IMG/VR virus record: IMGVR_UViG_3300029509_000119
Span: 63,909-127,908 of that record
Strand: one strand, 5' to 3'
Length of the DNA stretch: 64,000 nucleotides
Origin: a virus
Lineage: Duplodnaviria > Heunggongvirae > Uroviricota > Caudoviricetes
Shown here: positions 5,622 through 57,554 of the stretch, one piece after another
Numbering within the stretch: position 1 is the first letter of the stretch
Layout: each line of letters begins with the position of its first letter
Made by a program: the position numbers and the translations under genes
Notes under the pieces: model-generated
Databases searched by the model: none
Told to the model about the DNA's origin: nothing
What the model saw: the letters and a program-made list of their open reading frames with translations, nothing else

Positions 5622-5993
5622 TCAGCCGAGCTTGGATTCGGAATTGTCCATTGGTTGGGTGAGCGGCCTGCCGTCCGCGACCATCTGCTCGATGTCCTCG
5701 TAGTCGTCGCACGCCGCCCACAGCCCGAGGTCAGGGCTGAGGTGGTACATGGTTCCCGTCTTCGCGCCTTCGGCGATGTAGAATCCATGACTGCAAGTGT
5801 CGAGGATGTTGGTCGGCTGGGGGTCTTGCTCGTAATCGTCGAGGTTCCATGGGTCGCCTTCGGGGAGGAGCACGTAGTCCCCGACTCCTTCGCGCACGTC
5901 CCGCAGTCGCCGGTCGTATTCGTCTTGGAGGTCTTGCTCGCGGTCGAGCATGAGGTTGATTTGGTAGTCGATGCTGTTGAAGTAGTCGCTCAT
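5622..5993 (-). CDS. hypothetical acidic protein
   Basis: ORF 5622..6116 trimmed to 'MSDYFNSIDYQ...' because the upstream part is read-through of the promoter motif (MLYWKRS). D/E-rich. Confidence 0.5.
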   Translation of the reverse strand: MSDYFNSIDYQINLMLDREQDLQDEYDRRLRDVREGVGDYVLLPEGDPWNLDDYEQDPQPTNILDTCSHGFYIAEGAKTGTMYHLSPDLGLWAACDDYEDIEQMVADGRPLTQPMDNSESKLG

Positions 5994-6022
5994 TTTCGTC
6001 TCCTTGGTTTTGACTTTTCCTT

Positions 6023-6052
6023 TTTTGCGTGAACGTTTCCAGTATAGCATCA
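6023..6052 (-). promoter_or_regulatory. copy of conserved promoter/leader motif (minus strand)
   Basis: Reverse complement is tgaTGCTATACTGGAAACGTTCACGCAAAA, upstream of CDS 5622..5993. Confidence 0.5.
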
Positions 6053-6339
6053 TCTTCTGTTTTAGAAAACCGGCAACAGAGAAAGAAAAGGTTCCGCCGC
6101 CCCAAAATCCACACACGGGCGACGGAACCGCAAAAACACTCCCGCTAAGGAGTTCCAGCCGAGACCGGGGAAGAAACCAAGATGGCGGAAAACGGCCAAA
6201 AAACCGGTCTCAATCAACACATTAACCGACCTCGAACATTCGTCTGGCGAGGAACCGGAAAAACAGGAAAAAATTTTCTTTACCGTTTTTTTGTCGAGGA
6301 GGCCGCGTGAAGTCCGGCACCTGAGAATTGCCAACAAAA

Positions 6340-7365
6340 TCAGTTTCCGTCCGCAGCGCACTGTGCGAGGAACGATTTCGTCTCCGCCTTCTCCCACCCG
6401 CTCATGGACAGCTTGTACTTGTCTTTGATGTACACGCGTTTCGCCATGTACGAGCATTGGTACGTCTTGTTGGATGGAAGCCACACGCTTGGAGTGCCGT
6501 CCTGCCATTTGGTTTTGGAGCCGTTCAACGCCTCGTCCCTCACGAGGTTCACGCCCTGCTGTTTGACGTTGTTCGCCTCGCCTTCGGACGCGACGAGCAC
6601 TTCCGGGTCGTTCGCGTAGGCGATGCGGTCGCCTTTGCGTGAGTCCTTCCATAGGCCGCTGGCCCAAGCGTCGTTGACGGCGACCACGTGGTCGATTTGG
6701 ACGGCCATGCTGTCTCCGCCGGTCTTCCTTTGCTTGCCGTTGACGGTCTCGTAGGTGTCGCGTTGGAATCTGATGGTCTTGCCGGTGTACGGGTCTTGCA
6801 GGGTTCCGGTGAGTACCTTGCAGTTCTTGTCCATGGTCACGTCGGACATGTCGCGTTTGAGGATGTAGTCTCTCGTGGTGCCGTAGCCGCATAGTTGGCT
6901 GCTGTTCTGCCATGTGCCGAAGTCTTTTTTGCGGTCGTAGCCTTTGGTGTGAGGGGCGGCGGTTTCGATGTTGGAGAGCCTGTCGAGCGCCTGTTGCGTG
7001 GTGATGGGGCTTAAAGCGCCTTCAGGGACTCCTGTAGAGGCTGTTTGTTCCTGACTTGAGGAATTGTCCCCGTTTGGCGTCTGCGTCGATTCTGAGGGCG
7101 TTTCCGTGGCTTCTGGAGTGTTTGTCCGCGTATTGGGGTCGGACGGTTTCGAGGAAGGCTCCTTCAACCCCAGTTTCACATCAGGTTTGACCTTGGAATC
7201 CTCCCCCGGCATCAACTGGGACAAGTCATTGATTTCCGGCAGTCCGAAAATCTGCGACATGGGCTTCCACAATCCCAAGTTCACGATGAGCACCATGGCC
7301 GTCAACACGACCAGAATGCCGCCAATCAACGAACCGGCGGACATCCCGCCCTTCTTCCTAGCCAT
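6340..7365 (-). CDS. membrane-anchored DUF1524-type (His-Me finger/HNH-like) nuclease-like protein, extracytoplasmic
   Basis: Start at 'MARKKGGMSAGSLIGGILVVLTAMVLIVNLG' (N-terminal TM anchor). Low-complexity S/T/P/E linker. C-terminal 'IDHVVAVNDAWASG ... NNVKQQGVNLVRDEALN' resembles the DUF1524/GmrSD C-terminal His-Me motif. Confidence 0.55.
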   Translation of the reverse strand: MARKKGGMSAGSLIGGILVVLTAMVLIVNLGLWKPMSQIFGLPEINDLSQLMPGEDSKVKPDVKLGLKEPSSKPSDPNTRTNTPEATETPSESTQTPNGDNSSSQEQTASTGVPEGALSPITTQQALDRLSNIETAAPHTKGYDRKKDFGTWQNSSQLCGYGTTRDYILKRDMSDVTMDKNCKVLTGTLQDPYTGKTIRFQRDTYETVNGKQRKTGGDSMAVQIDHVVAVNDAWASGLWKDSRKGDRIAYANDPEVLVASEGEANNVKQQGVNLVRDEALNGSKTKWQDGTPSVWLPSNKTYQCSYMAKRVYIKDKYKLSMSGWEKAETKSFLAQCAADGN

Positions 7366-9539: not shown

Positions 9540-10409
9540 ATGACCTATGATAGCAAAGACCTCGACAAGTCAAACGCATACCGCTACGCTCCATCCGTGA
9601 TGTCGAAGCTGAGCTTCCTGCCACAGTCGAAACCTGACTCGCCATCCGTAAGGAAGACGAACGGGAACTCGTCAATCACCATTTCGGCCTCCAACGGGGA
9701 ATGGGCTTACGGTGCTGCCCCCAGAATGTTCCTCCTCCACATTCGCTCTCTTATCAAGAACGGGAGCGACTGCGTGGACGCGGAACATCACACCGTCTAC
9801 TTGGATAACACGTACAACTCGTTCTGCAATAGCGTCGGAATTAAATACTCCGGGTCAAACAAGGATAAGGTCATAGAGATGGTCAAGAACCTAGCCACCA
9901 CTTCCATCGTCCTCAAAAACTGGTCAGCGGACAGATTCATAGCCCGCTCGTTTTTCGTCGCAAACACCGTGGCGCTCAACTATGGGACTGACGAAAAAGA
10001 GAAGTCGTTCATAGAGTTCTCTCCTCAAATGTGGGCGCTGCTGACCGAGAACTGCGTGCCACTCAACCCGTCCATCGTCCGCCAGCTGCGCGGCGACGCC
10101 CTCTCGTTGGACGTGTACCAGTGGCTCGCGTTTCGCGCCAACTCCACACGCTATGAGACGCACGTAACATGGGAAGCTCTGTTGATGCAGTTCAAGTATG
10201 ACGGGTATCCGATGCGTGAATTCAAACGCAAGTTCAAGAGGGCGTTGGAGAAGATTCGGCTCGCGTGGCCGGAGCTGAAAGTCGAAATCACGGAAACCGG
10301 CGTCATAGTCCGTCCTAGTCTCCCTTCCATCCAGTCGGCTAACGATGATACCGACACGGACACGGGCGTGGCAGATAATGAAGAGCCGATAAACCCGTTC
10401 ATATCCTGA
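9540..10409 (+). CDS. plasmid replication initiator (iteron-binding Rep)
   Basis: ATG at 9540 with an AAGGAAC RBS. 289 aa with an acidic C-terminal tail. Position immediately downstream of the iterons and the AT-rich element. Family assignment (RepA_N-like) is from memory only. Confidence 0.6.
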   Translation: MTYDSKDLDKSNAYRYAPSVMSKLSFLPQSKPDSPSVRKTNGNSSITISASNGEWAYGAAPRMFLLHIRSLIKNGSDCVDAEHHTVYLDNTYNSFCNSVGIKYSGSNKDKVIEMVKNLATTSIVLKNWSADRFIARSFFVANTVALNYGTDEKEKSFIEFSPQMWALLTENCVPLNPSIVRQLRGDALSLDVYQWLAFRANSTRYETHVTWEALLMQFKYDGYPMREFKRKFKRALEKIRLAWPELKVEITETGVIVRPSLPSIQSANDDTDTDTGVADNEEPINPFIS

Positions 10410-20574: not shown

Positions 20575-21757
20575 CACAATCCTTTCCGATGAAACCGTAG
20601 AAGCCGCCACGGTATGCTTCCGGCATCGTCCAACCGGAAACGTCCCAACCCCAATCCTTTTTTATGATGTCCCGTGTCACGTCCCAACCCCATTCGCTGA
20701 CTTTGCGAACGTCACGGACATGCGGAGTGTATTGCGTCCACTCGTCGGAGAAAATGTTGCGCCGGATTCCGCTCATGTCCGTATATTCACCGAACCTGTC
20801 GGTCGGAATTCCATGTTCGAACCATTCATCCCAAACCGCGACTCCCATTCGTTGCGACACGGTCGGATTGCCCACGACCATTTCCGTCATGCCTTGCGTG
20901 CGTTGTATCACCGCGTTGAACGATTCGTAACCTTCGTTCGCTTTGGGTATCTGCAACCATACGCAGACGAGGCCGCGACGTTTCATTGGAGAGTAGGCGA
21001 GCATCTTCGCCCAGTTCTGCATCTTTCTGTCCAGTTCGCTGTTCGACGTTTGTATTTCGATACCGGCAAGCACGTTGTTGCGGCACAGTGTGACCACGTC
21101 GGTTGCGCACGCCTTGCCGACTTTCGACTCGGCAACCGCCTGCGGGTCAACGCTACGGAATTTTCCCCAACCGTCGCCGGAAGAAAACCTGACGCGGGAG
21201 TCGCGTGCCAACATCAATCCCGCGTGCGCAGCATAAGTGTTATGCCGAACATGGAAACGATTCCCCGCGTAATAGGAAACCGCCATCGTCTCACGCATCC
21301 ACTTTTCCATCCCGTACAATTTCATCGCACGGTTGATAAGACGTGGACTGTTCGACGGTGAAAGCCAAACATGATTCACGGTCTGACCGTACAATCGTTC
21401 CGCCTGACTGAAACCGACGTTGATGATTCCCAAACGGTTCATCGCACCATACAGGTTCGGTTCGTCACGCTCGAAAGCGGGAGCGCCTTTGATGGAAAGT
21501 CCCGCACGCAGTTGGTCAACCGTGCATGTCTTCCAAGTGAACAATGCTCCGAGGATACTCGAAACGAGTTCGCTGTTCGCTTTCACCATTGTCTCCGCGA
21601 ACAGTTTGTTCGCAACGAACCACGGGTGGGTCTGCGCGAACAATCCGGGATGCTCCATCTCGAACATGTCGTTGCCTTTATACCAGTCGGCAATGCTTCC
21701 GGTCTTCCAAAGATTCTCGTCGTTCGGGTCGAAAAGAAAACGGTCATCGAATGTCAC
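20561..21757 (-). CDS. hypothetical protein (398 aa)
   Basis: Normal composition. No 3-His relaxase motif or P-loop recognised. Translationally coupled to the upstream ParA-like gene (ATGA overlap at 21754..21757). Confidence 0.5.
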   Translation of the reverse strand: MTFDDRFLFDPNDENLWKTGSIADWYKGNDMFEMEHPGLFAQTHPWFVANKLFAETMVKANSELVSSILGALFTWKTCTVDQLRAGLSIKGAPAFERDEPNLYGAMNRLGIINVGFSQAERLYGQTVNHVWLSPSNSPRLINRAMKLYGMEKWMRETMAVSYYAGNRFHVRHNTYAAHAGLMLARDSRVRFSSGDGWGKFRSVDPQAVAESKVGKACATDVVTLCRNNVLAGIEIQTSNSELDRKMQNWAKMLAYSPMKRRGLVCVWLQIPKANEGYESFNAVIQRTQGMTEMVVGNPTVSQRMGVAVWDEWFEHGIPTDRFGEYTDMSGIRRNIFSDEWTQYTPHVRDVRKVSEWGWDVTRDIIKKDWGWDVSGWTMPEAYRGGFYGFIGKDCDGLH

Positions 21758-22968
21758 TTACGCCCACGACCTTTCTTTCCTTCACTGTTCTTAGCGTTCG
21801 GATTGAATCTTCCCGGATTGAAACCACGGTCGGGCAAAGCCCAGTTAAGAATGTTCTCCCTAGCAAAAGCAAGACCGGGGTCATCCCATCTGACATCACC
21901 GTTGGCGATATGGTTGCTTGCCTCGACCGTCTGATATTCGGTTCCGAGAAACGTTCCGTATCTCGTATAGTCGAGTCGCCTGTAACCTTGCAATCCGACC
22001 GGAACAGTGTCCTTGATGCCGATGAGTTCCTTCGGAAGATGATGTTCCGCCAATGCCGTCAGCAGATTCAACGCGTCTATCTGCGTCTGCCTTCCAGCCT
22101 TGACGATAACCAGACAAGGGTCTCCCGATTGAATGTATGGAAGCAGTAAACCGTTGGCGATATTCTCCCTATCATCCAAATCGTCCGCGCTGATTCGGTC
22201 AAGGTCGAGCACGACGAAATCCCACAGTCGGCGTGCCGCTTGGATGTACTGACGGTATATCTGCCAGTCCACTCCGATACCGGCTGGAGGTGCGAAACAG
22301 ATATCGTATGGAACCCCAAGGTCACGTCCTCGATTGGCTCCAACCTGCACCTGCATGCCCGGTCGCCAGTCGGCTATCGTATGCAATGGCTTGTCCTGTC
22401 TCGGGTCAAAAAAACTACGTTGGCTGGACTGCCGGATGTTCCCGTCGATGAGTAGAACACGCAATCCGACTTGCGACGCACGGTCTGCCAACTGTCGGCT
22501 GGACGTGGTCTTCCCCACTCCTCCGGTGTTGGATGTGATGGGTAGGAGAACCGCAGTCTCCTTCACTTTGTTTTGGAGGATATCGACTACGAGACGCTTG
22601 TCCGCAAGCTGGATTCCCCAATAAGTCCGTGCGAAATCAGCCACGCTCATGCGTAACATCTGTTCGCTCATGCCCATGGCTCCGACCGGTATCTGACCGG
22701 TGTTGCACCAGTAGACCATGTATCCGGCGTTGGCTATCGGAAGCCAGTTTCCAGCCCTGTCGGTGAAGATGATTCCTTTGAACCCGGAGGGCACCGGATG
22801 TCTTACCAGATAGTCGGCCTGTGCTTGAATATTGTCTGCGGCGGGCACCTGCCAACGCATGTTTCCGGCTCTCGTAAGGGCCTTTTTGATGGTTGTGAGA
22901 AGCCCTCCGGAGCCGATTATCAGGGAAATCGTTCGTTTTTCCAATAAGACCGCCTCCTGATGGGTCAT
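21754..22968 (-). CDS. ParA/MinD-superfamily ATPase with N-terminal extension (CpaE/TadZ-like)
   Basis: 'ITSNTGGVGKTTSSRQLA' is a deviant Walker A in the C-terminal half. ~150-aa N-terminal domain. First gene of the minus-strand operon. Confidence 0.6.
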   Translation of the reverse strand: MTHQEAVLLEKRTISLIIGSGGLLTTIKKALTRAGNMRWQVPAADNIQAQADYLVRHPVPSGFKGIIFTDRAGNWLPIANAGYMVYWCNTGQIPVGAMGMSEQMLRMSVADFARTYWGIQLADKRLVVDILQNKVKETAVLLPITSNTGGVGKTTSSRQLADRASQVGLRVLLIDGNIRQSSQRSFFDPRQDKPLHTIADWRPGMQVQVGANRGRDLGVPYDICFAPPAGIGVDWQIYRQYIQAARRLWDFVVLDLDRISADDLDDRENIANGLLLPYIQSGDPCLVIVKAGRQTQIDALNLLTALAEHHLPKELIGIKDTVPVGLQGYRRLDYTRYGTFLGTEYQTVEASNHIANGDVRWDDPGLAFARENILNWALPDRGFNPGRFNPNAKNSEGKKGRGRK

Positions 22969-23029
22969 GTTCCGTTGTTTTCATCGGAACGTTTACGGTT
23001 TTGTCCGAGTTCTGGCATTTATAGTTTTT

Positions 23030-23640
23030 GATATTTAGTTTTTTGTTGGTTCTGCTGTTGCTTTTTCATTGCATTGGCTGTTCCTGTATTGATGTTACCT
23101 TGTTTTGATTGTTGTTGACCCTGTTGGTGTGACTATTGACCTTTTTGTTGTCTGGCTGACCGTGTGGGGTGTTGTAGTGATTGTGATGTGGTTGCTGTCG
23201 TACCGGTTCTTTCTTCTTTGGGTTTGACACTGTCTTATGTGGTGCGGCTTCTGCTGTTTGCGTGTTTCTGCTGTCGCGTTTTTTGTAGTCTGTTCTTCTA
23301 TTTTTCTCTGTGTGGGCTTTTGTCTGTTGCGTCCTGTTGTCTTATGGTGGCTGGTTGCTCTGCGTTTGGTTCTTTAGTTACGTTGTGACCTGATTTACGG
23401 CATGGATTATTCTTCTTGTTCTGTCGTTGTTCTCTATTTTCGGTTCTTTCGTACTGGTGTTCTTTCTTGATTGTGTTGCTGTGTCTTCTTTTCTTCTGAT
23501 GTGGTCTCTTCTTTCTGTCTGGTTTTATTCTTTTGTTTCTTCTTTTTCTTGGTTCTTCTTTTTGATGGCATAGGGTTCTTGGATTTTTGTTTTTTGGAGT
23601 GGTTTCTTCTCTCTTTTTTTGAAGTCCGCTGTTCATGCTG
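23030..23640. other. ~600-bp pyrimidine-rich, A-depleted tract on the + strand (T about 55%, A about 3-8%, by hand count)
   Basis: Hand counts of two 60-nt lines gave T 32-35, A 2-5, C 10-12, G 11-13. Low-complexity TTC/TTG-type runs. Lies in the 940-bp divergent intergenic region between CDS 21754..22968 (-) and 23911..24594 (+). Confidence 0.6.
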
Positions 23641-23910
23641 GCCACCGGCGCGGCGGACGGCTTTGGCCTGTTCTTCTTCAGGTGACGCTCTAATCGTCGT
23701 TCCTGTTTTCCTTTCCCGTCATTGGACTCTTTTTTCTTGGTTACGTTTTTCGGATGGAACCTACCGGCTCGGGCGGGAGGGCTGTTTCCTGTTTTCTCTG
23801 TTTTGGAATGGCGGAATCAGTTACACTCGTAAATTGAAAATACAGAACACCTCGTTCTGACTGCTAACAGCCTGTCTGACCGGAGTGTTCGCTGGCTGAC
23901 GAAAGAAGGT

Positions 23911-24594
23911 ATGATGCCAGACTTCACCAATTGGGGTTTCAACAACAACCAACAGTCGGAGCAGGACAACGGTTATGGTTCCGGCAATTATTTCGAACCG
24001 GAACAGCCTGAGTCCGGGCTTGTTCAGGACGGCGTGGATTCCGCCGCTGAGACTCCGACTCCAGCCGACGATGAGTCTGTTGGCACGACTGACGAGCCGA
24101 CCGAAACGGGAGACAAGCCGAAAGGCAAATCCAAGGTTCGTGCAAACCGTAAGCCTCGTGAAAAAACCATGCCGCATATCGAGGAACAGTTCGGAAAGAA
24201 ACTCATTCCTCTCATCAAATCGTTGGATGATGAACGTGTGATTGCTCTCGCCAAGGCGTTGACCGACACGAAGAAAAGCACTCCGGAAGCCGTGTTGGAT
24301 GCGTTGACCGAGCCGAAGAACCAACGTCGAATCTCTGATTTCACGTCCGCCTTAGAGGGTTTGACCACCGCCGAGCCGGGCATGATTGCAGCGGAGGTGA
24401 CGCTTGTGTTCGCACAGGGCAAGGATATGACGAACCTGCTGTTCTCCGTGTTGAACGCGGTCGCTCCGGAGAAGAATTTCGGACGTCCGGTTGACGACCA
24501 GTCTCCTATCGGAATGCGTAAGAACCTGAGCAAGATTGTCGATAACTGGGGTGACGGAGTTGACCTTTCCGTCATTGACGAGCTGAAAATCTAA
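23911..24594 (+). CDS. hypothetical protein with acidic low-complexity N-terminus
   Basis: ATG at 23911 with a GAAAGAAGG RBS. 227 aa. The antisense ORF 23821..24324 is G/V/R-rich. Confidence 0.5.
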   Translation: MMPDFTNWGFNNNQQSEQDNGYGSGNYFEPEQPESGLVQDGVDSAAETPTPADDESVGTTDEPTETGDKPKGKSKVRANRKPREKTMPHIEEQFGKKLIPLIKSLDDERVIALAKALTDTKKSTPEAVLDALTEPKNQRRISDFTSALEGLTTAEPGMIAAEVTLVFAQGKDMTNLLFSVLNAVAPEKNFGRPVDDQSPIGMRKNLSKIVDNWGDGVDLSVIDELKI

Positions 24595-24615
24595 GTTTCC
24601 AACTCCAACATCATT

Positions 24616-24648
24616 GAGGGGAGCCGACCGTGATGGCCGACTCCCCTC
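24616..24648. terminator. bidirectional GC-rich hairpin between convergent genes
   Basis: gaggggagccgacc-gtgat-ggccgactcccctc (12 of 14 bp). Between the stop of 23911..24594 (+) and the stop of 24657..25427 (-). Confidence 0.5.
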
Positions 24649-24656
24649 TCTTGCAT

Positions 24657-25427
24657 TCAAGACCGGTTTTTACGGCGTAAACGTACCGCATCTTCGGACG
24701 AGTACACGCCGAACGGGCTGATGGTCACACTGTATTTCGTCATCCGGTACGTCCACTCGGTCTGACTGTCGTTCAACTCTTTGAACCTCTTCAACAGGCT
24801 TTGCGCGGAAAGGCTCTGGCTGCTCGCCGGAAGCAATGATGGAAGGTCCTCACGTTCGATGATGAGACGATGGTTTTCCGGACAATACAATGCGGACAAC
24901 ACGAGCAAGTCTATACCGATGGCGCTTCCCGCGTTCGGATACAGGCACTTCAGCGGGAGCTGGCGGACGTTTCTTGTCATCATGCGGACGAACTGCTCCG
25001 TGAATGTGATTCTACGATGTTCGACTGTCAGGAAATCCGGGCTGATGTCCGTATGCGACACGGGAATTATCTTATTCCCATCCATGTCGGTGAACTGTAT
25101 TTCGGTGAGCATGAGCAGCCGGTCACGTACCGTGGTTCGTCCGTCGCCGCCACTGTTCAACCCGCATTTGTTCGCCAGATAGAAGAAGTCCTCTCCGATG
25201 GTGAGGGTTCTGGTTTCCGCATTCCATTCACGGCTAGGAGTGTTGACGAGCGTGGTGATGATGATGCTTAACAGACGTGGGGCTCGTCCCGAGAACGTCT
25301 GCTTGTCTTTCGCACGGTATGGGGCGAACAGTGGGTATGATTCCGCTGTGACGTATCCGATGTCGTAGCCGAGTATCGTATGATAATCGACTTTCAGGGT
25401 TTCCAACCCGTAGGTTCCTTCGTTCAT
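24657..25427 (-). CDS. hypothetical protein (256 aa)
   Basis: Normal composition. Last gene of the minus-strand operon that begins at the promoter copy at 28526..28553. Confidence 0.5.
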   Translation of the reverse strand: MNEGTYGLETLKVDYHTILGYDIGYVTAESYPLFAPYRAKDKQTFSGRAPRLLSIIITTLVNTPSREWNAETRTLTIGEDFFYLANKCGLNSGGDGRTTVRDRLLMLTEIQFTDMDGNKIIPVSHTDISPDFLTVEHRRITFTEQFVRMMTRNVRQLPLKCLYPNAGSAIGIDLLVLSALYCPENHRLIIEREDLPSLLPASSQSLSAQSLLKRFKELNDSQTEWTYRMTKYSVTISPFGVYSSEDAVRLRRKNRS

Positions 25428-25571
25428 GGTGTCTCCTTAATGATGTGGACGGAGTGTGGTTTCCGTCGATAAGACAATCATACCCCCACGTTAAGGTTGG
25501 AAGATGAAAAAAGCCGGTGGTCAATATCAACCACCGGACTAAAAATCCTAGATTTTCCTCCTATCCGCCTT

Positions 25572-25850
25572 TTAAGCAGACGTGTCGTCCACGTCAGGTT
25601 TTTTATCCTCCGAAACAGGTCTGCACGAATTTCGACCCGACTTGCCGGACGCCCTGCGTTCCAATCGAAGCTGGTAGCGGATACGCTCCAACGTCTTGGA
25701 CGTGTCCGTTATATTGCCCTTGCGGGCTTCACGAATCCACAACTGGCAGCCACGGTCAAGCATGGCAATGTCCGATAGTTTCGGTTGCCTGTCAGAACGT
25801 TTCAACGACTTCGACGGTATTTGTTTTCGTTGTTGTCCATCGTCTTGCAT
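25572..25850 (-). CDS. possible small basic protein
   Basis: ORF 25572..25901 (GTG start), tentatively trimmed to 'MQDDGQQRKQ...'. S/R/K-rich. Could instead be non-coding intergenic sequence. Confidence 0.25.
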   Translation of the reverse strand: MQDDGQQRKQIPSKSLKRSDRQPKLSDIAMLDRGCQLWIREARKGNITDTSKTLERIRYQLRLERRASGKSGRNSCRPVSEDKKPDVDDTSA

Positions 25851-25905
25851 TCCACCCGCCTTTCCTGTTCGTCGGCGTGGGCGTTTTGACGATTCGCCCA
25901 CTTTT

Positions 25906-26913
25906 TCACAGGTTTGGAATCTCCTTTTTCAAAGAGTCAAAAGCTTTGAGAAGCGTTTCCGTGGGAATGGTCTCCGACCCGGAAATCAAAGCGTTACGAG
26001 CCAAACCGTCTACGGTTTGGACAAGCAGGGATGGGCTGACGCCGGACATGTCGAAATCGGCTGGGACGTCAGATTTGACGTTCAGTTCCTTAAGACGACG
26101 GACGACGATAATCCTTGAGGCGGGCTTGTCCGTCATGTTCAACCGGATTCTCACGTCGAACCGTCGCCATGCGGCACGGTCAATGAGACTGTTCATGTTG
26201 GTCGCGCAGACGAGCACGCAATCGTCGGGCAGTGAGTCGATTCTTTGCAACATGAGATTGGTTGCGCGGCGCATCTCCGCCACATCCTGAACGTTGTCTC
26301 TACGGGCGAGAAGCATGTCGCATTCGTCAATGAAAAGAAGCCGACGTTCCGCGTGGAGCCGGTCGAACACCAATGCGATGTTGTCCAAGGTCTTGCCGAG
26401 CTGACTGCTTATCACACGGTCAGCACGAAGAACGATGCCGGGCAATCCGAGACGTTCGGCGAGTATGGATGCGAACGTGGTCTTGCCCGTGCCGGGCGCT
26501 CCGGTAAGGATGATTTTGTTCCGTGGGGCGAGATTGTGCGAAACCAATACGTCGGAATGGCAGTGCTCCTCCACGAGTCCATCCAGCGTCTCCTCTATGG
26601 TCTTGTCCCATACCGGCTTGTGTGTTCCATCCAATACCGGCAGCGGTTCGGTCAGCCCGTCCACCGGGGTCAGGTTCGGATTGGATGACTGTCCTTTCGC
26701 CTGTTCCAGCTCGGCGAGCCGACGCAGCCTGTCAGCGGAGGCGGATGATTTTCCGTTCTCGTAGGAGTCGGCCAATAATCTGATTTGCCGTGCGAATCTC
26801 AGATGGTCTTCGTCGCATGCGGCTTTGACCAGACGCAGCATCTCTGTTTTGTTCAATATGTTCCACCTTTCGGGAATTGGCTCACATGCCATCGTGGAAA
26901 ACCGTGGGGTCAC
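25906..26913 (-). CDS. classical-clade AAA+ ATPase
   Basis: Walker A 'ILTGAPGTGKTT', Walker B 'LLFIDECD', second region of homology 'CATNMNSLIDRAAWRRFD' with the arginine finger. ~120-aa N-terminal non-ATPase domain. Start overlaps the upstream gene by 4 nt. Confidence 0.75.
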   Translation of the reverse strand: MTPRFSTMACEPIPERWNILNKTEMLRLVKAACDEDHLRFARQIRLLADSYENGKSSASADRLRRLAELEQAKGQSSNPNLTPVDGLTEPLPVLDGTHKPVWDKTIEETLDGLVEEHCHSDVLVSHNLAPRNKIILTGAPGTGKTTFASILAERLGLPGIVLRADRVISSQLGKTLDNIALVFDRLHAERRLLFIDECDMLLARRDNVQDVAEMRRATNLMLQRIDSLPDDCVLVCATNMNSLIDRAAWRRFDVRIRLNMTDKPASRIIVVRRLKELNVKSDVPADFDMSGVSPSLLVQTVDGLARNALISGSETIPTETLLKAFDSLKKEIPNL

Positions 26914-27143
26914 TGGTAGAAAGACTTGTTGTACGCGATAATGGCTACGACCGAGACAGTCAACACCAACAGTGAAATCACGGTCATCAGCCGATAGTTG
27001 AACAGGTCGGAACGGGACTTCTCATCAGGCATACGGCTCATGCGCCCAAGGGAAAGACGAGCGTAATGGACCATTGCGGACAAGCTTAGAATGGACAGCA
27101 GTATGAGAAGCAGTGACACTTGGGAACGCTCGTCGGACAACAC
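26910..27143 (-). CDS. small two-TM membrane protein
   Basis: 77 aa: 'VSLLLILLSILSLSAMV' and 'LMTVISLLVLTVSVVAIIAY'. GTG start. Confidence 0.45.
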   Translation of the reverse strand: MLSDERSQVSLLLILLSILSLSAMVHYARLSLGRMSRMPDEKSRSDLFNYRLMTVISLLVLTVSVVAIIAYNKSFYQ

Positions 27144-27532
27144 TATTCATCCTTGCGAATCCACCGGTCGGGATGGTCTAGATACGGGTAGAGTTCAGGA
27201 ATTCTCTTTACCGCTTCGCTGACCCAACCGTTGCGGCAGATGCGTTCCAAATAGTCCAACGGCTTGCGTTGGAGGTATTTCGATTTTGCCTCTCGGGTCT
27301 TTCCGATGGCTTCCACGGCTTTCGCGTTGGCCTGTTCGGATGTGATTAGTCCACTGTCTTTGCTGGCGGAAATGGCAGTCAACTGTCTTCTGAGCCGACT
27401 GACTGCCTCCATGTCGTTAGCGTACGGTCGTGCTGGAGTGGAAGTCCTGCCCTTATTCTCTTTGTTGGACTCGTTCTCGCTCAACCCTTTTGCTTCCTTT
27501 TCTTCTTGCGATGTCCTCGATGCTTGTTCCAC
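27143..27532 (-). CDS. hypothetical protein, paralogue A of a tandem pair
   Basis: The C-terminal 'LERICRNGWVSEAVKRIPELYPYLD' matches 'LCKLCRNGWIREAADEMKIVYPDLD' in the upstream gene. Homology extends upstream of the internal ATG, so the GTG at 27532 is the probable start (uncertain). It would overlap the upstream gene's end by 52 nt. Confidence 0.45.
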   Translation of the reverse strand: MEQASRTSQEEKEAKGLSENESNKENKGRTSTPARPYANDMEAVSRLRRQLTAISASKDSGLITSEQANAKAVEAIGKTREAKSKYLQRKPLDYLERICRNGWVSEAVKRIPELYPYLDHPDRWIRKDE

Positions 27533-27819
27533 TGTTCAAGAGAATCCAAGTCGGGGTATACGATTTTCATTTCATCCGCCGCTTCACGAATCCAGCCGTT
27601 GCGGCAGAGTTTGCAGAGACGAACCATTGGGCCGCTTGTCGCTTTCGGCATTCCTCCGTTTGCTGTCACCACGGCTTCGACCGCCAGATTGTTGGCTTCG
27701 TCGTAGGGAATTGACCCTTCGTTTTTCCCGTCCGCTATCTCGCAAAGCCGTTCTCGTAGTTGGAAAAGCTTCCTTGTTTTTTCCAATGTTGGATGGTATG
27801 TCTGTATCGGCTCCGGCAT
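27481..27819 (-). CDS. hypothetical protein, paralogue B of a tandem pair (basic K/R C-terminal tail)
   Basis: ORF 27481..27906 trimmed to 'MPEPIQTYHP...', which has a GGGAGAACA RBS. Paralogous to 27143..27532. Confidence 0.45.
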   Translation of the reverse strand: MPEPIQTYHPTLEKTRKLFQLRERLCEIADGKNEGSIPYDEANNLAVEAVVTANGGMPKATSGPMVRLCKLCRNGWIREAADEMKIVYPDLDSLEQWNKHRGHRKKKRKQKG

Positions 27820-27850
27820 TGTTCTCCCGTGGGTCTCCTCTTGGTTGCGC

Positions 27851-28231
27851 TCACAGTCCGGCTTGCTGAATACGTCCCAGCCAGTACTTGCGGTCGGCGG
27901 ACGCATACGTTTCGTTGATGGTGGAGGCGAGTTCCTGATAGCGGATGGTCAAATCTGGCTGGTATCGTGCCGTCGCCGGTGGAACGACCGTGGTCATCGA
28001 ACCATGGTTGAACAGCAGGACGTCACGGTCTGCGCTTTCGTGTTCGAGCTTGCTGTCGATTCCTTCGAGCCACTGTCGGGTTTCGTCGTCGTTAGGCAGT
28101 CTGCCCTCGCCAATCATTCGGCTTATCGTGTCTTTGAGGTCGAGCAGCGCGTCCTGCATGCGCTCGTTTTTTTCTAGGAGTCGGTCGAGTTCGGTTTTCG
28201 GTTTCTGTTCCGTTTTGGTTTCGGTTTCCAT
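27851..28231 (-). CDS. hypothetical protein (charged, coiled-coil-like)
   Basis: ORF 27851..28261 with the start at 'METETKTEQK...'. E/K/L-rich. Confidence 0.45.
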   Translation of the reverse strand: METETKTEQKPKTELDRLLEKNERMQDALLDLKDTISRMIGEGRLPNDDETRQWLEGIDSKLEHESADRDVLLFNHGSMTTVVPPATARYQPDLTIRYQELASTINETYASADRKYWLGRIQQAGL

Positions 28232-28303
28232 GCGTGTTGCCTTTTTTCTGTGTGATGACATGCCTGTGCCCCAGTCTTTTTCAGGCTGGGGTATTCTGTT
28301 TTG

Positions 28304-28480
28304 TTAGGCGTCCAATCCGTTGAGGAAGTGGGCGAGCAGGGCGGCTGAGCTGAGTAGGAATGTGATGCTGGTGATTGCCATGACCACGTGTCCGTAATCC
28401 TGTCTCCACATGAGGAATGCGCTGACGATTGTGATGAGTGTCAATGTCAGGTTGATGTTGTTTTCCGTCTGCTTGCTCAT
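28304..28480 (-). CDS. small membrane protein (59 aa)
   Basis: 'MSKQTENNINLTLTLITIVSAFLMW...ITSITFLLSSAALLAHFL'. RBS AAGAAGAAACC. First gene after the promoter copy. Confidence 0.4.
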   Translation of the reverse strand: MSKQTENNINLTLTLITIVSAFLMWRQDYGHVVMAITSITFLLSSAALLAHFLNGLDA

Positions 28481-28525
28481 GGTTTCTTCTTTTTTCCCGG
28501 CGTGGCTGGGAGTGTGTGGCTCCCT

Positions 28526-28553
28526 TTTTTTGTGGACGATTCCAGTATAACAA
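28526..28553 (-). promoter_or_regulatory. copy of conserved promoter/leader motif (minus strand)
   Basis: Reverse complement is TTGTTATACTGGAATCGTCCACAAAAAA. Upstream of the 8-gene minus-strand operon 28480..24657. Confidence 0.5.
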
Positions 28554-28680
28554 AGAGTATTGCCATACGCAAGCCCGGAACCTCGCGACCTTCCGCCGTT
28601 TGCATACCCCCACATAATGTGTTAAGCTGGACGCGCCCACATACAAACCAGTCAACAGGACAAGGAAAAAGACGCAGACA

Positions 28681-28905
28681 ATGAGCGTAAGTGAATACTG
28701 CAACGGCAATACAAACACCCTGCAAGCCATCGACAACGAGTCCGACAACAAGCTCACCATCATCCAATCCACCGCCTTCGGCAAGGAACTCATGTTCACT
28801 ACCGTCGGAGACGGAACCGCGTCCAGCGTCATCGTCAACAACGCGGAAGACCTCCGGAAAATCAGAGACTACATGGACGAAAGCCTTCGCTGGATGGAAG
28901 ACTGA
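28681..28905 (+). CDS. hypothetical protein
   Basis: 74-aa ORF with an ATG start. The antisense ORFs in this region are G/V/R-rich. Confidence 0.45.
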   Translation: MSVSEYCNGNTNTLQAIDNESDNKLTIIQSTAFGKELMFTTVGDGTASSVIVNNAEDLRKIRDYMDESLRWMED

Positions 28906-28908
28906 ACA

Positions 28909-29451
28909 TTGGACGAAGACACCTGCACCATCCGCATCTACGACGACGGGCAACCCACGGTATTCGTCAACGGCCACCTCATACACGGGCGGATGCCCGA
29001 CAAAGACGAACGTCCCCTATACGTTCTGACAGTCCCGAAGACAAGACTCGTCACCGGTCTCGCGCCAACGATTCCGGACTTGGATTGCACGACAGTCCTC
29101 CCCTTGGAATCCTTCGCGGAATGGCTCGCCAACGGAGACGTGGGATTCAGCTCCCTCGCCATCGTCCAACGACTTACCGGCATCACCATGACTGCGAACG
29201 GCGTACGGAAAAACGGATGTGAGGATACGCCGAAAGACCCCGGCGACATACGCCGGATACTGAGAATGTTCGACATGGTGCCCGCCGCCCGAGCGTATCT
29301 GAGCCTCATGAGCGACGTGTCAGCCGACTGGGAAACCATCGTCAGACATTGGGGTGAAATCGAAGAACAGTATCGGCAGGAGGAACACAATCCCTCCGGT
29401 TGCGCTCCGAAAACCTACCGGATGCTGAAACACTTGAAAGAAATTGGATGA
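28909..29451 (+). CDS. hypothetical protein
   Basis: 180-aa ORF starting 4 nt after the previous stop. Normal composition. Confidence 0.5.
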   Translation: MDEDTCTIRIYDDGQPTVFVNGHLIHGRMPDKDERPLYVLTVPKTRLVTGLAPTIPDLDCTTVLPLESFAEWLANGDVGFSSLAIVQRLTGITMTANGVRKNGCEDTPKDPGDIRRILRMFDMVPAARAYLSLMSDVSADWETIVRHWGEIEEQYRQEEHNPSGCAPKTYRMLKHLKEIG

Positions 29452-29584
29452 CTGCCGTATTTATATTTCCTTCTACTCATCAAGGCATAGGACAAATGGC
29501 GTGAGGGAACGACGGTGAAACTCCTCAGATTCCCGCCAACCGAACAATTCCCCGACGCAATCTAAAAGAAAGGAACCGTCAGAA

Positions 29585-29953
29585 ATGGCCGAAAAGACCA
29601 AACCAAGCCTATCGAAAAAACTCTCCTCCAAGGAAGCATTGGAGTTGGCGAAACGACCGGAAGTCGAAGAAGTGCTCAACACCCGTCGCGGCTGGTGGAT
29701 TATCTTCACCACCGAATTCCAAGACGAAGTGACCCTCCGATACCTGCGGGGAGAGAAACCTTCCATCATTTTCCGCAGCCACAATCTCGGACCGGAAATC
29801 CTCGGATACAAACGCATCGAACGTTGCATCTACCATTGGGCTAGCCACCCATGCGACAGTCGGGCAAGCCGATTGGAGGAGGAACACCGATGCTACGCGG
29901 AGTTGAGAAAACATCGGAAGCATATCGCGGATAAGGGGAATTCCGACAAGTGA
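29585..29953 (+). CDS. hypothetical protein
   Basis: 122 aa. RBS AAAGAAAGGAAC. Its stop overlaps the dnaB GTG start. Confidence 0.45.
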   Translation: MAEKTKPSLSKKLSSKEALELAKRPEVEEVLNTRRGWWIIFTTEFQDEVTLRYLRGEKPSIIFRSHNLGPEILGYKRIERCIYHWASHPCDSRASRLEEEHRCYAELRKHRKHIADKGNSDK

Positions 29954-31290
29954 GCGACACCACTCCAATCCATAAGGACATGCCCGAACAGGTCGTGCTC
30001 GGAGCCATGCTCCAAGACCCTGAGACCTTGGACAAGGTCATCGGACAGTTGTCCGAACATGATTTCTACCAGCCGAACCATCAGGAAATCTTCTGCAACA
30101 TCAAGGAACTGGCAGCCGAAAACAATCGTGTGGACGCGCAAATGCTGTCCTCGCACATGATGGACAACGGCAAGTTGGAACAGGTCGGCGGCATCGACTA
30201 CATAGCCCAGCTTGTGAGCGCCGCACCATCCACAAGCAACAGCGGCTATTTCGTCAAACAGGTCAGGGACGCGGCAATCCTACGCCGTATCAACATCGTC
30301 GGACAACAATTGCAGCAGATGAGCGGCGTAACCGACGCTTCAGCCGAAGACGTGCTCCGCAAATCCTTGGAGGCCGCGTTCGCCTTGGAGGACGCAAGCC
30401 GGAACGAAGACGACGAACTGAAGACCGCATACCGGTTGTCCGACGAAATGCTCCAACAGTTGGACGACATGCAACGGCATCCGAACGACTTCGGAACACC
30501 CACCGGCTTCCGCAATATCGACGCTTTGACGCATGGGCTGCAAGCCGGACAGATGGTCATTGTCGCCGGACGTCCGGGCATGGGCAAAAGCACGCTCGGC
30601 ATGGACTTCGCCCGCAACGCCGCACTGCACAACAACCTACCCACCGTGATATTCAGTCTGGAAATGGGCGGACACGAACTCATGCAACGCATGTTCGCCG
30701 CAGAAACAGGCATCCGGCTCGCATCCTTCCAACACCCCGAACACTTGAACCGGAACGATTGGGACAAGCTCAACAACCTCTGCCATCACGTCGAACACGC
30801 ACCATTGTGGATTGACGATTCCGCCATCATCAACATGAGCACCATCCGAGCGAAATGCCGCGCCCTGAACCGCAAGGTCAACGGGCTGAAACTCGTCGTC
30901 ATCGACTACCTGCAACTCATGACTTCAGGCAAAAACGTCGAGAACCGCCAGCAGGAAGTGTCGAACTTCTCCCGCCAATGCAAGATGCTCGCCAAGGAAC
31001 TGCAATGCCCCGTGGTCGTGCTCTCCCAGTTGAACCGCAACTCGGAACAACGCGCCGACAAAAGACCGGAACTGTCCGACCTGCGCGAATCCGGCTCCAT
31101 CGAACAGGACGCGGACATGGTGTTCCTCGTGCATCGTCCCGAATACTACGACCGTGAGGAACGTCCGGGCGAGGCCGACGTGATTCTCGCCAAGCATCGC
31201 AACGGTCCGACCGACACGTTCAACCTCGCATTCATGGGCGAATGCTCCAAGTTCGCGGACATGGCCGCAGACTTCGGAGCTGAAATCTGA
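29950..31290 (+). CDS. dnaB: replicative DNA helicase DnaB
   Basis: 446 aa. N-terminal DnaB domain. Walker A 'GRPGMGKSTLGMD', 'LVVIDYLQLM', 'LSQLNR', 'DLRESGSIEQDADMV', all canonical DnaB motifs. Confidence 0.9.
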   Translation: MSDTTPIHKDMPEQVVLGAMLQDPETLDKVIGQLSEHDFYQPNHQEIFCNIKELAAENNRVDAQMLSSHMMDNGKLEQVGGIDYIAQLVSAAPSTSNSGYFVKQVRDAAILRRINIVGQQLQQMSGVTDASAEDVLRKSLEAAFALEDASRNEDDELKTAYRLSDEMLQQLDDMQRHPNDFGTPTGFRNIDALTHGLQAGQMVIVAGRPGMGKSTLGMDFARNAALHNNLPTVIFSLEMGGHELMQRMFAAETGIRLASFQHPEHLNRNDWDKLNNLCHHVEHAPLWIDDSAIINMSTIRAKCRALNRKVNGLKLVVIDYLQLMTSGKNVENRQQEVSNFSRQCKMLAKELQCPVVVLSQLNRNSEQRADKRPELSDLRESGSIEQDADMVFLVHRPEYYDREERPGEADVILAKHRNGPTDTFNLAFMGECSKFADMAADFGAEI

Positions 31291-34299: not shown

Positions 34300-34345
34300 T
34301 TGATGTTCTCCTACATTCTAGTTATACTGGAATCGTTCACACAAA
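34300..34345 (+). promoter_or_regulatory. conserved promoter/leader motif copy with recognisable -35 (TTGATG-17nt-TATACT)
   Basis: TTGATG at 34300..34305, TATACT at 34323..34328, then GGAATCGTTCACACAAAA. First promoter of the + strand gene array. Confidence 0.55.
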
Positions 34346-35558: not shown

Positions 35559-35585
35559 ATGCTATACTGGAAATGTCCACATAAA
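35559..35585 (+). promoter_or_regulatory. copy of conserved promoter/leader motif
   Basis: aTGCTATACTGGAAATGTCCACATAAAA. Confidence 0.5.
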
Positions 35586-37112: not shown

Positions 37113-37140
37113 GTGCTATATTGGAATTGTTCACACAAAA
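37113..37140 (+). promoter_or_regulatory. copy of conserved promoter/leader motif
   Basis: cTGTGCTATATTGGAATTGTTCACACAAAA. Confidence 0.5.
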
Positions 37141-37652: not shown

Positions 37653-37682
37653 TGTGCTATACTGGAATTGTTCACACAAAAA
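37653..37682 (+). promoter_or_regulatory. copy of conserved promoter/leader motif
   Basis: TGTGCTATACTGGAATTGTTCACACAAAAA. Confidence 0.55.
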
Positions 37683-38670: not shown

Positions 38671-38700
38671 TGTGGTATACTGGAATTGTTCACACAAAAA
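38671..38700 (+). promoter_or_regulatory. copy of conserved promoter/leader motif
   Basis: TGTGGTATACTGGAATTGTTCACACAAAAA. Confidence 0.55.
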
Positions 38701-39498: not shown

Positions 39499-39526
39499 TG
39501 ATATACTGGAATCGTTCACACAAATA
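39499..39526 (+). promoter_or_regulatory. copy of conserved promoter/leader motif
   Basis: aTGATATACTGGAATCGTTCACACAAATA. Confidence 0.5.
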
Positions 39527-39960: not shown

Positions 39961-39987
39961 TGTTATATTGGAATTGTTCACACAAAC
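39961..39987 (+). promoter_or_regulatory. copy of conserved promoter/leader motif
   Basis: gTGTTATATTGGAATTGTTCACACAAAC. Confidence 0.5.
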
Positions 39988-41304: not shown

Positions 41305-41333
41305 TGATATACTGGGATTGTCCACACAAACAA
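41305..41333 (+). promoter_or_regulatory. copy of conserved promoter/leader motif
   Basis: aTGATATACTGGGATTGTCCACACAAACAA. Confidence 0.5.
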
Positions 41334-43756: not shown

Positions 43757-45075
43757 GTTCTCCTACCTTTAATTGACGGAACATCATAGGGTGGTTGACT
43801 ACACCCTTACGCCGTCAGTCATGCTGGCGGCGTACTGCGAGTTCAAAAGGTCGTAGCCTTTGTGTCGCAGGTTCATCGCGGCTATCCGGTCGTCGTTGGA
43901 CCGGTATCCGCAGTTGCGGCAGACATACAGGTGGCGTTTCTTGTCACGGTTGGCTTTGCAGATTTTCCCGCATTTCGGGCAGGTCTGGCTTGTGTAGGCC
44001 GGGTCAACGAACACGACTTTCTGACCGTTGCGTTTCGCCTTGTATTCGACCATCTGCCGGAATTGGTGGAAACTCCAACTGACCTGAACATACCTGTCCT
44101 TGACCTTGACCTGTTCGGTCGCATTGCGGATTCCCGTAAGGTCTTCGAGAACGAACATCGTATCCCTGTCGTAATGGTTGACGAGTGCCTTAGACGCCTG
44201 ATGGTTCACATCGGTCATCCAACGGTTTTCTCTGTCGCCTATGGTTTTGAGTCGTCTGCGGGCGCTTCGGGTGCCGCGTTTCTGCAACTGTTGACGGAGC
44301 CGCTTGTATTTGCCGCGCTTGCTTTTCACCTCCCCTCCATGTTGGAAGACGGTGGTTTCGCCGTCATAACTGGTGGCGAGCATTCGGATGCCCAAGTCCA
44401 CGCCCACTATGTTTTTGGGGCTTGGGGTTGGGTCGGGAACCGGTAGGATGATGGGAATATGCAGGTACCATTTGCCTCGTTTCGATATCAGTCGGGCGGT
44501 ACCGAAACGTGCCGTACGGTATTCGTCTGGTATTCCCTTCCATTGGGCTTTGACCTTGATTCTCCCGTCCATGACGGGAAGGCTGAACATTCCGGTCTTG
44601 GACGAATAGGAGTAGTCACGGTTCCACAACAGGTCAACACCAGCGGACGAGTATTCGGGTTTGACGGAATAGCACGCCGTCCCTCTTCCTTTGGGCTTGC
44701 CTTCGTTTCGGCGTTCCATGCGCGAGTGAATTGCCTTGTAGGACGCGATGACCCGCCGTATCGAAGATTGGGTCATCTGGGCCAACAGTCCGTATTTGTC
44801 GCGTAGCGGGTGATAGACAGCCTCGTTGATTTTCCTCTGGCTGAGGGTGTGGTGTTCTCCAATCCAATCGGATACTTCGTTGCAGCAGGAGGTGTAATTG
44901 TCACATAGGCGGTTGAGGGCTTCGGACTCGTGTTTGTTGGTCGTGAGCTTGACTTTCATGGTCAATGCGAGTTCCACCATATGCTTCACCTCCAATAAAA
45001 AACATTGTATCATAATGTTAGTGGAAAGGAAAGGCATTCACCCACGACCACAAGGGTCGTGGTACCCTGCCCAAA
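43757..45075 (-). mobile_element. IS200/IS605-family insertion carrying only tnpB (IS1341-like); ends approximate
   Basis: tnpB ORF plus subterminal hairpins: 'agggtggttgactacaccct' at the 3' side (43779..43798) and 'ccacgaccacaagggtcgtgg' at the 5' side (about 45047..45068). Interrupts an otherwise uniform + strand gene array. Confidence 0.5.
43799..44983 (-). CDS. tnpB: TnpB (OrfB) RNA-guided endonuclease-type transposase accessory protein
   Basis: ORF 43799..45037 started at 'MVELALTMKV...'. OrfB_IS605 core. C-terminal zinc ribbon 'CPKCG...CRNCG' and RuvC-like 'DVNHQASKAL...VVFVDPAYTSQTC'. Confidence 0.8.
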   Translation of the reverse strand, partial: HMVELALTMKVKLTTNKHESEALNRLCDNYTSCCNEVSDWIGEHHTLSQRKINEAVYHPLRDKYGLLAQMTQSSIRRVIASYKAIHSRMERRNEGKPKGRGTACYSVKPEYSSAGVDLLWNRDYSYSSKTGMFSLPVMDGRIKVKAQWKGIPDEYRTARFGTARLISKRGKWYLHIPIILPVPDPTPSPKNIVGVDLGIRMLATSYDGETTVFQHGGEVKSKRGKYKRLRQQLQKRGTRSARRRLKTIGDRENRWMTDVNHQASKALVNHYDRDTMFVLEDLTGIRNATEQVKVKDRYVQVSWSFHQFRQMVEYKAKRNGQKVVFVDPAYTSQTCPKCGKICKANRDKKRHLYVCRNCGYRSNDDRIAAMNLRHKGYDLLNSQYAASMTDGVRV

Positions 45076-55643: not shown

Positions 55644-55668
55644 TGTTATACTGGAATCAGCCACATTT
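55644..55668 (+). promoter_or_regulatory. copy of conserved promoter/leader motif
   Basis: tTGTTATACTGGAATCAGCCACATTT. Confidence 0.5.
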
Positions 55669-57494: not shown

Positions 57495-57527
57495 ATGATT
57501 CCAGTATTTGGACATATTTTACGCAAA

Positions 57528-57554
57528 CCACTATACTGGAATCAGTCACATAAG
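57528..57554 (+). promoter_or_regulatory. copy of conserved promoter/leader motif, preceded by an inverted copy of its core at 57489..57520
   Basis: ccaCTATACTGGAATCAGTCACATAAG. Upstream 'gtgtgaatgattccagtat' is the reverse complement of the core (17 of 18 identical to the + copy), giving an ~18-bp inverted repeat with a ~25-bp spacer. Confidence 0.5.

Follow-up and report, generated by a model that had tools for sequence, protein, structure and literature searches.

Positions 24657..28553 of the 64,000-nucleotide stretch of DNA analysed here (the window; positions 63,909 to 127,908 of IMG/VR record IMGVR_UViG_3300029509_000119) hold a compact minus-strand gene array that includes a AAA+ ATPase of 335 amino acids (aa). 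A preliminary description had read this array as a single eight-gene operon of unknowns, built around the ATPase and ending at a bidirectional hairpin, and had likened it to multigene defence or anti-defence cassettes. Our analysis suggests instead that the locus is composite: an operon shared with other bifidobacterial megaplasmids appears to carry an insert with an ATPase of the IetA family, and the last gene of the array encodes a replication-initiator-like protein.

Gene content and transcription units

The minus-strand open reading frames (ORFs) lie where the preliminary description had placed them. As a test of coding, differences at codon positions 1/2/3 were counted against the diverged relatives L011, L021 and L022. 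The features of the locus, in the direction of minus-strand transcription, are as follows.

28526..28553, minus strand: plasmid-specific promoter/operator motif TTGTTATACTGGAATCGTCCACAAAAAAA, with the core TATACTGGAATCGTCCACA at 28531..28549, upstream of the first gene
28304..28480, minus strand: w58, 58-aa membrane peptide, putative backbone; codon-position differences 6/1/9
28266..28294, no strand assigned: 12-bp hairpin between w58 and w126, from a scan for terminator-like structures, with no U-run on the coding strand
27851..28231, minus strand: w126, 126-aa acidic soluble protein (isoelectric point, pI, 4.9), putative backbone
27481..27819, minus strand: w112, 112-aa helical protein with the motif CxNGWIREA, putative backbone
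27143..27484, minus strand: w113, 113-aa second paralogue (129 aa if translated from 27532), putative insert; TTGA start/stop overlap with w112
26910..27143, minus strand: w77, 77-aa basic protein (pI 9.7) with two transmembrane (TM) segments, at residues 7-25 and 52-70, putative insert; codon-position differences 12/3/24
25906..26913, minus strand: IetS-less IetA-family classical AAA+ ATPase, 335 aa, putative insert; codon-position differences 81/42/143
25572..25850, minus strand: w92, small basic protein (pI 10.0) of 92 aa, or 63 aa from the ATG at 25763, just upstream of w256, putative backbone; codon-position differences 7/6/24
25514..25537, minus strand: strong intrinsic terminator at the end of the ATPase-containing unit, with a 10-bp stem (six G-C pairs), a 4-nt loop and the tail CTTTTTTCAT
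24657..25427, minus strand: w256, 256-aa double winged-helix protein of the RepA_C/Rep_3 superfamily, with its own Shine-Dalgarno sequence AAGGAGA; codon-position differences 32/23/105
24616..24648, no strand assigned: hairpin of inverted repeat I13, with 14-nt arms, between the convergent genes w256 and w227
23911..24594, plus strand: w227, 227-aa gene convergent with w256

The promoter copy upstream of w58 to which the preliminary description had pointed is real. The window has 13 copies of its core TATACTGGAATCGTCCACA, where 0.01 would be expected, and TATACTGGAATCGTCCACA/TTGTTATACTGGAATCGTCCACAAAAAAA matches the motif AWAYATGYTATACTGAATATGTCCACATAAAAWA published for the bifidobacterial megaplasmid pMP7017 (PMC10832533). 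On pMP7017 this 34-bp plasmid-specific promoter/operator motif overlaps the -10 element, is present in 19 copies and drives 56 genes, and the regulon takes in defence genes (PMC10832533). The other 12 copies of the core in the window lie at 6028..6046, 34323..34341, 35563..35581, 37117..37135, 37658..37676, 38676..38694, 39502..39520, 39964..39982, 41308..41326, 55647..55665, 57490..57508 and 57532..57550, and they bunch at 34-41 kb on the plus strand.

From this promoter, transcription would run through w58, w126, w112, w113, w77, the ATPase gene and w92, seven genes that are tightly packed and in some cases overlap, and would stop at the terminator at 25537..25514. L011 has a hairpin followed by a T-run at the equivalent position, with a different sequence. 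With this terminator placed before the 256-aa gene, the single eight-gene operon first proposed is unlikely; the genes probably form two units, w256 appearing to be a transcription unit of its own. The terminal hairpin of the preliminary description was found beyond it: the arms at 24616..24648 are 86% complementary in the repeat scan, all 14 of their 14 positions pair in the fold if G-U pairs are allowed, and the surrounding 76-nt stretch folds at -34.6 kcal/mol with a U-run on neither strand. For the w58-w126 hairpin, candidate roles are attenuation and processing. Both w256 and the first gene of the operon are preceded by the sequence GTGGGGGTATG, at 25476..25488 and 28600..28612 on the minus strand, and L011 has a related ACTGGGGGTATC; the element may represent a second type of promoter or operator, and its looser pattern gives three matches against about one expected, a difference of marginal significance.

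Every ORF but one shows the excess of third-codon-position changes that real genes should show. The exception, a 35-aa ORF overlapping the ATPase stop codon, was rejected as a gene (codon-position differences 9/11/7; synonymous/nonsynonymous 3/17; no coding signature). The possible small basic ORF of the preliminary description thus survives only as w92, in which, compared with L011, about 17 third positions and one amino acid have changed over 38 codons. Both small membrane proteins that it had listed were recovered, since w58 has a strong TM segment at residues 32-50 and a weaker N-terminal one (one or two TM segments in all) and w77 has two. The tandem paralogue pair is equally genuine: w112 and w113 are 34% identical over 104 aa (E=6e-15, BLASTP) and share C(R/x)NGW(I/V)(R/S)EA…YP.LD. 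A model of the NGWIREA protein is a five-helix bundle (predicted local distance difference test score 79), and a structure search with it returned generic helical bundles only, with no informative neighbour. A 102-aa relative of the pair, P0242, looks chimeric, having a w112-type N-terminal part and a w113-type C-terminal part (…GWIREAVRKIPELYPYLDHPDLW), which suggests recombination between tandem paralogues. w92 was considered as a third NGWIREA paralogue, as it carries C-Q-L-WIREA with the identical pentapeptide WIREA, but was rejected at similarities (E 0.14-0.9) that are not significant. Scans of every small protein against Pfam, PHROGs, PADLOC and NCBIfam gave noise only.

The IetA-family ATPase

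An IetAS system is defined by the pairing of the AAA+ ATPase IetA with an S8 subtilase, IetS, of ~720-880 aa. The pair has been described both as a stability toxin-antitoxin of pTiC58 and as an anti-phage defence system (as cited in PMC13069673). The window ATPase resembles IetA in several respects. As the preliminary description had recognized, it is a classical-clade AAA+ protein with an extra N-domain, of ~115 aa; Walker A (GAPGTGKT at 138), Walker B (LLFIDECD at 192), sensor-1 (CATN, ~236-239) and the RRF arginine fingers (250-252) are intact, PF00004 is matched at E=7.7e-22, and the AAA+ core is nearest VAT/Cdc48/p97 (3e-25). The PADLOC IetA profile PDLC02196 is matched full length, N-domain included (E=1e-58; residues 22-326 on profile positions 4-319 of 374). 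The best-scoring profile is phrog_3757 (E=1e-63, residues 21-329), a family without assigned function that holds phage and prophage IetA-like ATPases, some of them beside an S8 peptidase, as in the E. coli phage vB_EcoS-683R6. Identity to the IetA proteins of pHG1 and pRHL3 is ~30-31% over ~300 aa, and the gene, like theirs, is plasmid-borne. By these matches the ATPase is a full-length IetA-family member with intact catalytic motifs, and to that extent the likeness to a defence system noted earlier holds for this one gene. Its start has three plausible positions: GTG 26913 (335 aa), which gives the 4-nt overlap of the preliminary description and is only one of the three; ATG 26892 (328 aa), the choice of gene callers; and a site near residue 18-25, where distant homologues begin.

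The likeness stops at the protease. A tblastn search of the whole 64-kb window with two IetS proteins found no IetS (best match E=0.006 over 52 aa), and none of the neighbours of the ATPase has a Pfam peptidase match; these neighbours include a 2-TM protein and an NGWIREA paralogue. The preliminary description had seen no recognizable effector, and the missing effector can now be named as the S8 protease IetS. An S8 peptidase lies immediately downstream of IetA in pHG1, pRHL3, L106 (whose ATPase is 36% identical to that of the window) and phage vB_EcoS-683R6, and 32 of the 53 IMG/VR homologue loci have a downstream ORF long enough for IetS (648-884 aa if complete; in two of the 32 the ORF is ~500 aa, one of them cut by the contig end). 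The ATPase also scores only 167.7 bits (4e-49) against the NCBIfam model IteA_antiphage (NF042959, "anti-phage ATPase IteA"), well below the equivalog cut-off of 510. With no IetS and a score under that cut-off, the locus should not, on sequence grounds, be filed as IetAS; the ATPase itself may nevertheless descend from IetA and work like it.

A neighbour-joining tree of 64 sequences places the window ATPase with those of L011, L012, L103, L014, L104 and L105, with L018 as sister, and all eight of these eight loci are without IetS. These loci come from plasmids, conjugative elements and prophage-like gene arrays of bifidobacteria or other actinobacteria. The same clade differs at pore loop 1, where the motif S-[FY]-L-G-E-T has its aromatic residue in 34 of 35 IetS-linked proteins and in none of the eight clade members, whose residues are Q, Q, R, K, L, H, R and R; in the window protein the position is Q170 (SSQLGKT). 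The aromatic criterion is an empirical feature of IetS-linked IetA derived in this analysis. N-domain identity is ~16% to IetS-linked proteins and ~20% inside the clade, against 38% and 56%, respectively, for the AAA core, and the N-domain appears to be fast-evolving. Overall, the window ATPase appears to belong to an IetA clade that has lost both its subtilase partner and the aromatic pore-loop residue. Such a clade, confined to mobile elements, is not described in the IetAS or pMP7017 literature that we found.

ATPase homologues at 40-44% identity have different neighbour genes. In L103, translational coupling joins the homologue to a DNA-binding HTH_36 protein of 416 aa; in L012 the homologue follows a topoisomerase. 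Rhodobacter phage ATPases were rejected as comparators, having no IetA N-domain, and a scan of GTDB genomes with the ATPase returned unrelated Bacteroidota AAA proteins only.

Megaplasmid backbone, cargo slot and the Rep-like protein w256

w256 is identical to WP_065437577.1 of Bifidobacterium pseudocatenulatum, and close variants are found in B. catenulatum/kashiwanohense and B. adolescentis. Contigs bearing it are 180-194 kb long, and the identical protein is present in 138 indexed blocks of the contig collection, mostly from the human gut; the carrier plasmid family is thus common in metagenomes from this source. No nucleotide match to 24000..29500 came from megablast searches of PLSDB plasmids and a phage collection. 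Protein comparison shows synteny of the region, at 31-39% identity, with pMP7017 (KM406416) and with the megaplasmids of B. longum. The region is flanked, as in pMP7017, by a DnaB helicase gene (29950..31290) and a ParA/CobQ-like gene (21754..22968). Taken together, the lack of a nucleotide match, the low identity and these flanks point to a separate and widespread bifidobacterial megaplasmid family of the B. pseudocatenulatum/catenulatum/adolescentis group, distantly related to pMP7017. Within this family, whose megaplasmids measure ~180-190 kb, 37 loci keep all the genes in order, with ATPase identities of 62-100%. A conserved gene neighbourhood, by which the preliminary description had proposed to judge its cassette, is therefore seen inside the plasmid family and is lost among the ATPase homologues at 40-44% identity.

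The pMP7017 locus (B. breve/longum; B7017_RS00325, RS00320, RS00315 and RS00310, between dnaB and a CobQ/ParA-like gene) has the same gene order, the same type of promoter motif, and homologues of w126 (38%), w112/w113 (36%/31%), w256 (39%) and w227 (31%). Unlike the window, it has no ATPase, no 77-aa TM protein and a single NGWIREA gene, and tblastn finds in it no homologue of w58 or w92. It and sister plasmids fill the corresponding interval as follows (lengths in aa), in each case without the ATPase.

pMP7017: 128 (w126-like), 107 (one NGWIREA), 259 (Rep-like)
L101: 62 (TM), 157, 107, 104 (w92-like), 256 (Rep-like, 69% identical to w256)
L112 and L113: 58 (TM), 128, 212 (NUDIX), 110, 60 (TM), 211 (TM), 99, 256
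L114: 58, truncated w126, w113-type, w77-type, 254
L098: 662 (long hydrophobic stretches, by inspection), 80, 243

The operon is thus not built around the ATPase, as had been supposed, since pMP7017, L101 and L112 keep the flanking genes without it. Homologues of w58 (56-58% identical) head the same operon in L101, L112 and L114, the L112 copy of w126 is 54% identical and B7017_RS00325 matches w126 at E=2e-20, and w92 homologues (54-62%) are present in L101 and L112. The single NGWIREA copies found elsewhere are 57-66% identical to w112 and 34-35% to w113, which suggests that w112 is the ancestral copy and w113 a diverged second one. Neither w113 nor w77 is present in pMP7017, L101 or L112; w113-type and w77-type genes stand together in L114. 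The identity of w77 is 70-77% in diverged plasmid types and 95-99% in near-identical loci. The simplest interpretation is that w58, w126, w112, w92 and w256, with the convergent w227, are backbone shared with other bifidobacterial megaplasmids, and that w113, w77 and the ATPase, absent where this backbone is kept, are a lineage-specific insert in a variable slot that appears to be a cargo hotspot. These gene comparisons add to the pMP7017-type map a conserved backbone module, with a variable cargo slot, between the DnaB and ParA-like regions.

In L112, the place of w113, w77 and the ATPase is filled by the 212-aa NUDIX-domain protein (3335..3973) and two membrane proteins. Homology between the 211-aa TM protein of L112 and the TM proteins beside the L012 ATPase was considered and rejected (E=1.4 and 73), and PADLOC gave no matches in the slot cargo of sister plasmids.

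w256 had been listed as a protein of unknown kind. Its search against Pfam gave nothing beyond noise at E<=1, and RepA_C and Rep3_N were not matched directly. A search of 1.84 billion representative proteins with a profile built from its family reached ~40 full-length relatives and then 340-390-aa proteins with Pfam RepA_C, and profile-profile comparison (hhalign) gave a probability of 99.8% (E=2e-28, 228 columns). The protein has the tandem winged-helix (WH1-WH2) fold together with this profile homology to Rep_3/RepA_C. By structure, profile and hhalign, w256 is therefore a short replication-initiator-like protein of the Rep_3/RepA_C superfamily, and the claim that the locus matches no replication module fails for this gene. 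w256 is unlike the iteron initiators of the superfamily (π of R6K, RepA of pPS10, RepE of F, RctB, and pMP7017 RepA/RepB) in that it is shorter (256 versus 290-390 aa) and has no C-terminal extension, direct Pfam match or nearby iteron array found. In a search for direct repeats over 22900..25600, no convincing iteron family emerged, only short, low-complexity T-rich repeats.

A bona fide RepA_C replication protein (PF04796, 4.9e-10, above cut-off) is encoded at 9540..10409 on the plus strand; the window thus has two Rep-superfamily genes, and their products are distinct, at 19% identity. The pMP7017 homologue of w256 is likewise neither RepA nor RepB. Beside the two replicases already studied in that plasmid, the w256 type is a third member of the Rep family, and a short one. 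In pMP7017 the origin lies at repB, away from this locus (PMC8313286), and the intergenic region upstream of the pMP7017 Rep-like gene gave no alignment with the window. Candidate roles for w256 are those of an auxiliary initiator, a regulator or an incompatibility factor.

Candidate roles of the insert

IetA has been characterized as the antitoxin of the protease toxin IetS, with a defence mechanism described as not known (PMC13069673), and IetAS is present in human-associated Bifidobacterium genomes (bioRxiv 10.1101/2025.01.20.633837). In the light of this literature, the most likely account of the locus, one that we favour tentatively and stop short of calling probable, combines the anatomy described above with an ATPase acting as a stand-alone, antitoxin-like remodeller or holder in plasmid maintenance or conflict. 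No longer controlling a protease, the ATPase would act as an ATP-driven remodeller or holder, and its fast-evolving N-domain would engage a partner, for which the co-inserted w113 and/or the membrane protein w77 are obvious candidates. In one option the ATPase and w77 would form an addiction-type pair, perhaps with w113 as adaptor; in another the ATPase would neutralize IetS-type toxins of resident IetAS systems, whether of the host or of competing elements. The module would give no direct service to replication, partition or conjugation, and w256 would be a DNA-binding Rep paralogue, an auxiliary initiator or regulator, outside the ATPase machine. Two sharper versions of this idea are more speculative, and we consider them rather unlikely: that the IetS-less IetA proteins with an altered pore loop, on plasmids, conjugative elements and prophages of bifidobacteria and other actinobacteria, are "antitoxin-only" counter-defence factors against resident IetS, or that w113, w77 and the ATPase form a three-part membrane-acting addiction or abortive module in which the 2-TM protein replaces the protease. 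If the counter-defence version were true, neutralization of IetS would let the mobile element establish.

Several observations weigh against the stand-alone, antitoxin-like ATPase. The N-domain is only ~16% identical to that of IetS-linked IetA, which would make retained IetS binding doubtful, and loss of the pore-loop aromatic argues against substrate threading of the classical kind. A coupled small TM protein, present in the window, L014 and L012, does not adjoin the ATPase in L103, L104 or L105 and was rejected as a universal partner of the IetS-less clade, the outline of which comes from a neighbour-joining tree without support values. Neither the small proteins nor the cargo that sister plasmids have in the slot match any defence family. 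Transcription may also read through the terminator into w256. Finally, a backbone paralogue inside the module and a Rep-like neighbour fit replication or maintenance at least as naturally as conflict.

These last points lead to an alternative in which the ATPase is a replication or maintenance accessory that remodels backbone machinery, for instance by monomerizing or activating w256 or by acting on w92, with w113 as adaptor and w77 as membrane anchor. The module does sit between DnaB and a Rep-family gene, it does contain a paralogue of a backbone protein, and ATPase homologues have DNA-related neighbours, namely the HTH_36 protein in L103 and the topoisomerase in L012. On other plasmids, Rep proteins of the iteron type depend on chaperones or AAA+ proteins to become monomeric, which also counts in favour. 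In pMP7017, RepB is purely dimeric in solution (PMC8313286). However, both the Rep-like gene and the backbone are present in pMP7017, L101 and L112, which have no ATPase there, a terminator separates the ATPase unit from w256, no iterons were found near w256 (22900..25600), the ATPase is without the aromatic pore loop for unfolding, and the sole documented roles of its family are those of antitoxin and defence (PMC13069673). We consider such an accessory role unlikely, although it is the main rival. The reading of the preliminary description, a single eight-gene defence or anti-defence cassette around the ATPase in which the 256-aa protein would be an unrecognized effector or sensor, is improbable. 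It can draw on an ATPase from a defence-system family, on the co-conservation of all eight genes in 37 contigs of the plasmid family and on a promoter of the plasmid-specific type whose pMP7017 regulon has defence genes (PMC10832533), but the 256-aa protein is a Rep-family DNA-binding protein behind a terminator, sister plasmids with no ATPase have five of the eight genes in the same order, neighbours differ around more distant ATPase homologues, and PADLOC matches the ATPase only. A decaying IetAS remnant, in which IetS has been lost and a functionless ATPase is kept by linkage, would account for the absence of IetS from the window, the score far under the NCBIfam equivalog cut-off and the lost pore-loop aromatic. 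This is the least probable of the alternatives and very hard to sustain against catalytic motifs that are all intact, an ORF that is intact in 37 contigs at 62-100% identity with a clear third-position excess (81/42/143), and an IetS-less clade that persists down to 40% identity across plasmids, conjugative elements and prophage-like regions; the data already hint at a dN/dS clearly below 1 across this clade.

IetAS is widespread. A natural IetA clade without the protease, with an altered pore loop and found on mobile elements only, would offer a handle on IetA's own activity, and the clade is a candidate source of an anti-IetAS factor or of a new addiction factor.

Beyond the locus, scans of the window with Rfam models and for tRNAs found no RNA genes. 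IMG/VR lists contigs of the megaplasmid family (L019-L044, 90-217 kb) as viral genomes; their backbone is pMP7017-like, with DnaB, a ParA-like gene and an AAA_10-domain ATPase (59819..62479). Between w227 and the ParA-like gene, ~800 bp at ~22990..23800 are T/G-rich on the plus strand (AT skew -0.36, GC 0.49) and contain only short, degenerate repeats. Related contigs are called there with a minus-strand ORF of 112-180 aa, and the minus-strand ORFs of the window are Lys/Arg-rich and of low complexity; the stretch may be centromere-like or origin-like, or may encode a basic protein that binds DNA. On the other side of the locus, the interval from DnaB to a divergent 74-aa gene is variable: the window (28909..29451, plus strand) and L001 have a 180-aa protein (phrog_1229, 9.5e-23), which in L002 and others is replaced by genes for 588 and 185 aa (L002 4214..5980 and 5962..6519). 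A TnpB/Cas12f-like gene (OrfB_IS605 and TNB domains) lies at 43799..45037 on the minus strand; L098 has a similar gene in the backbone slot, and B. felsineum (L014) has one near the ATPase homologue.

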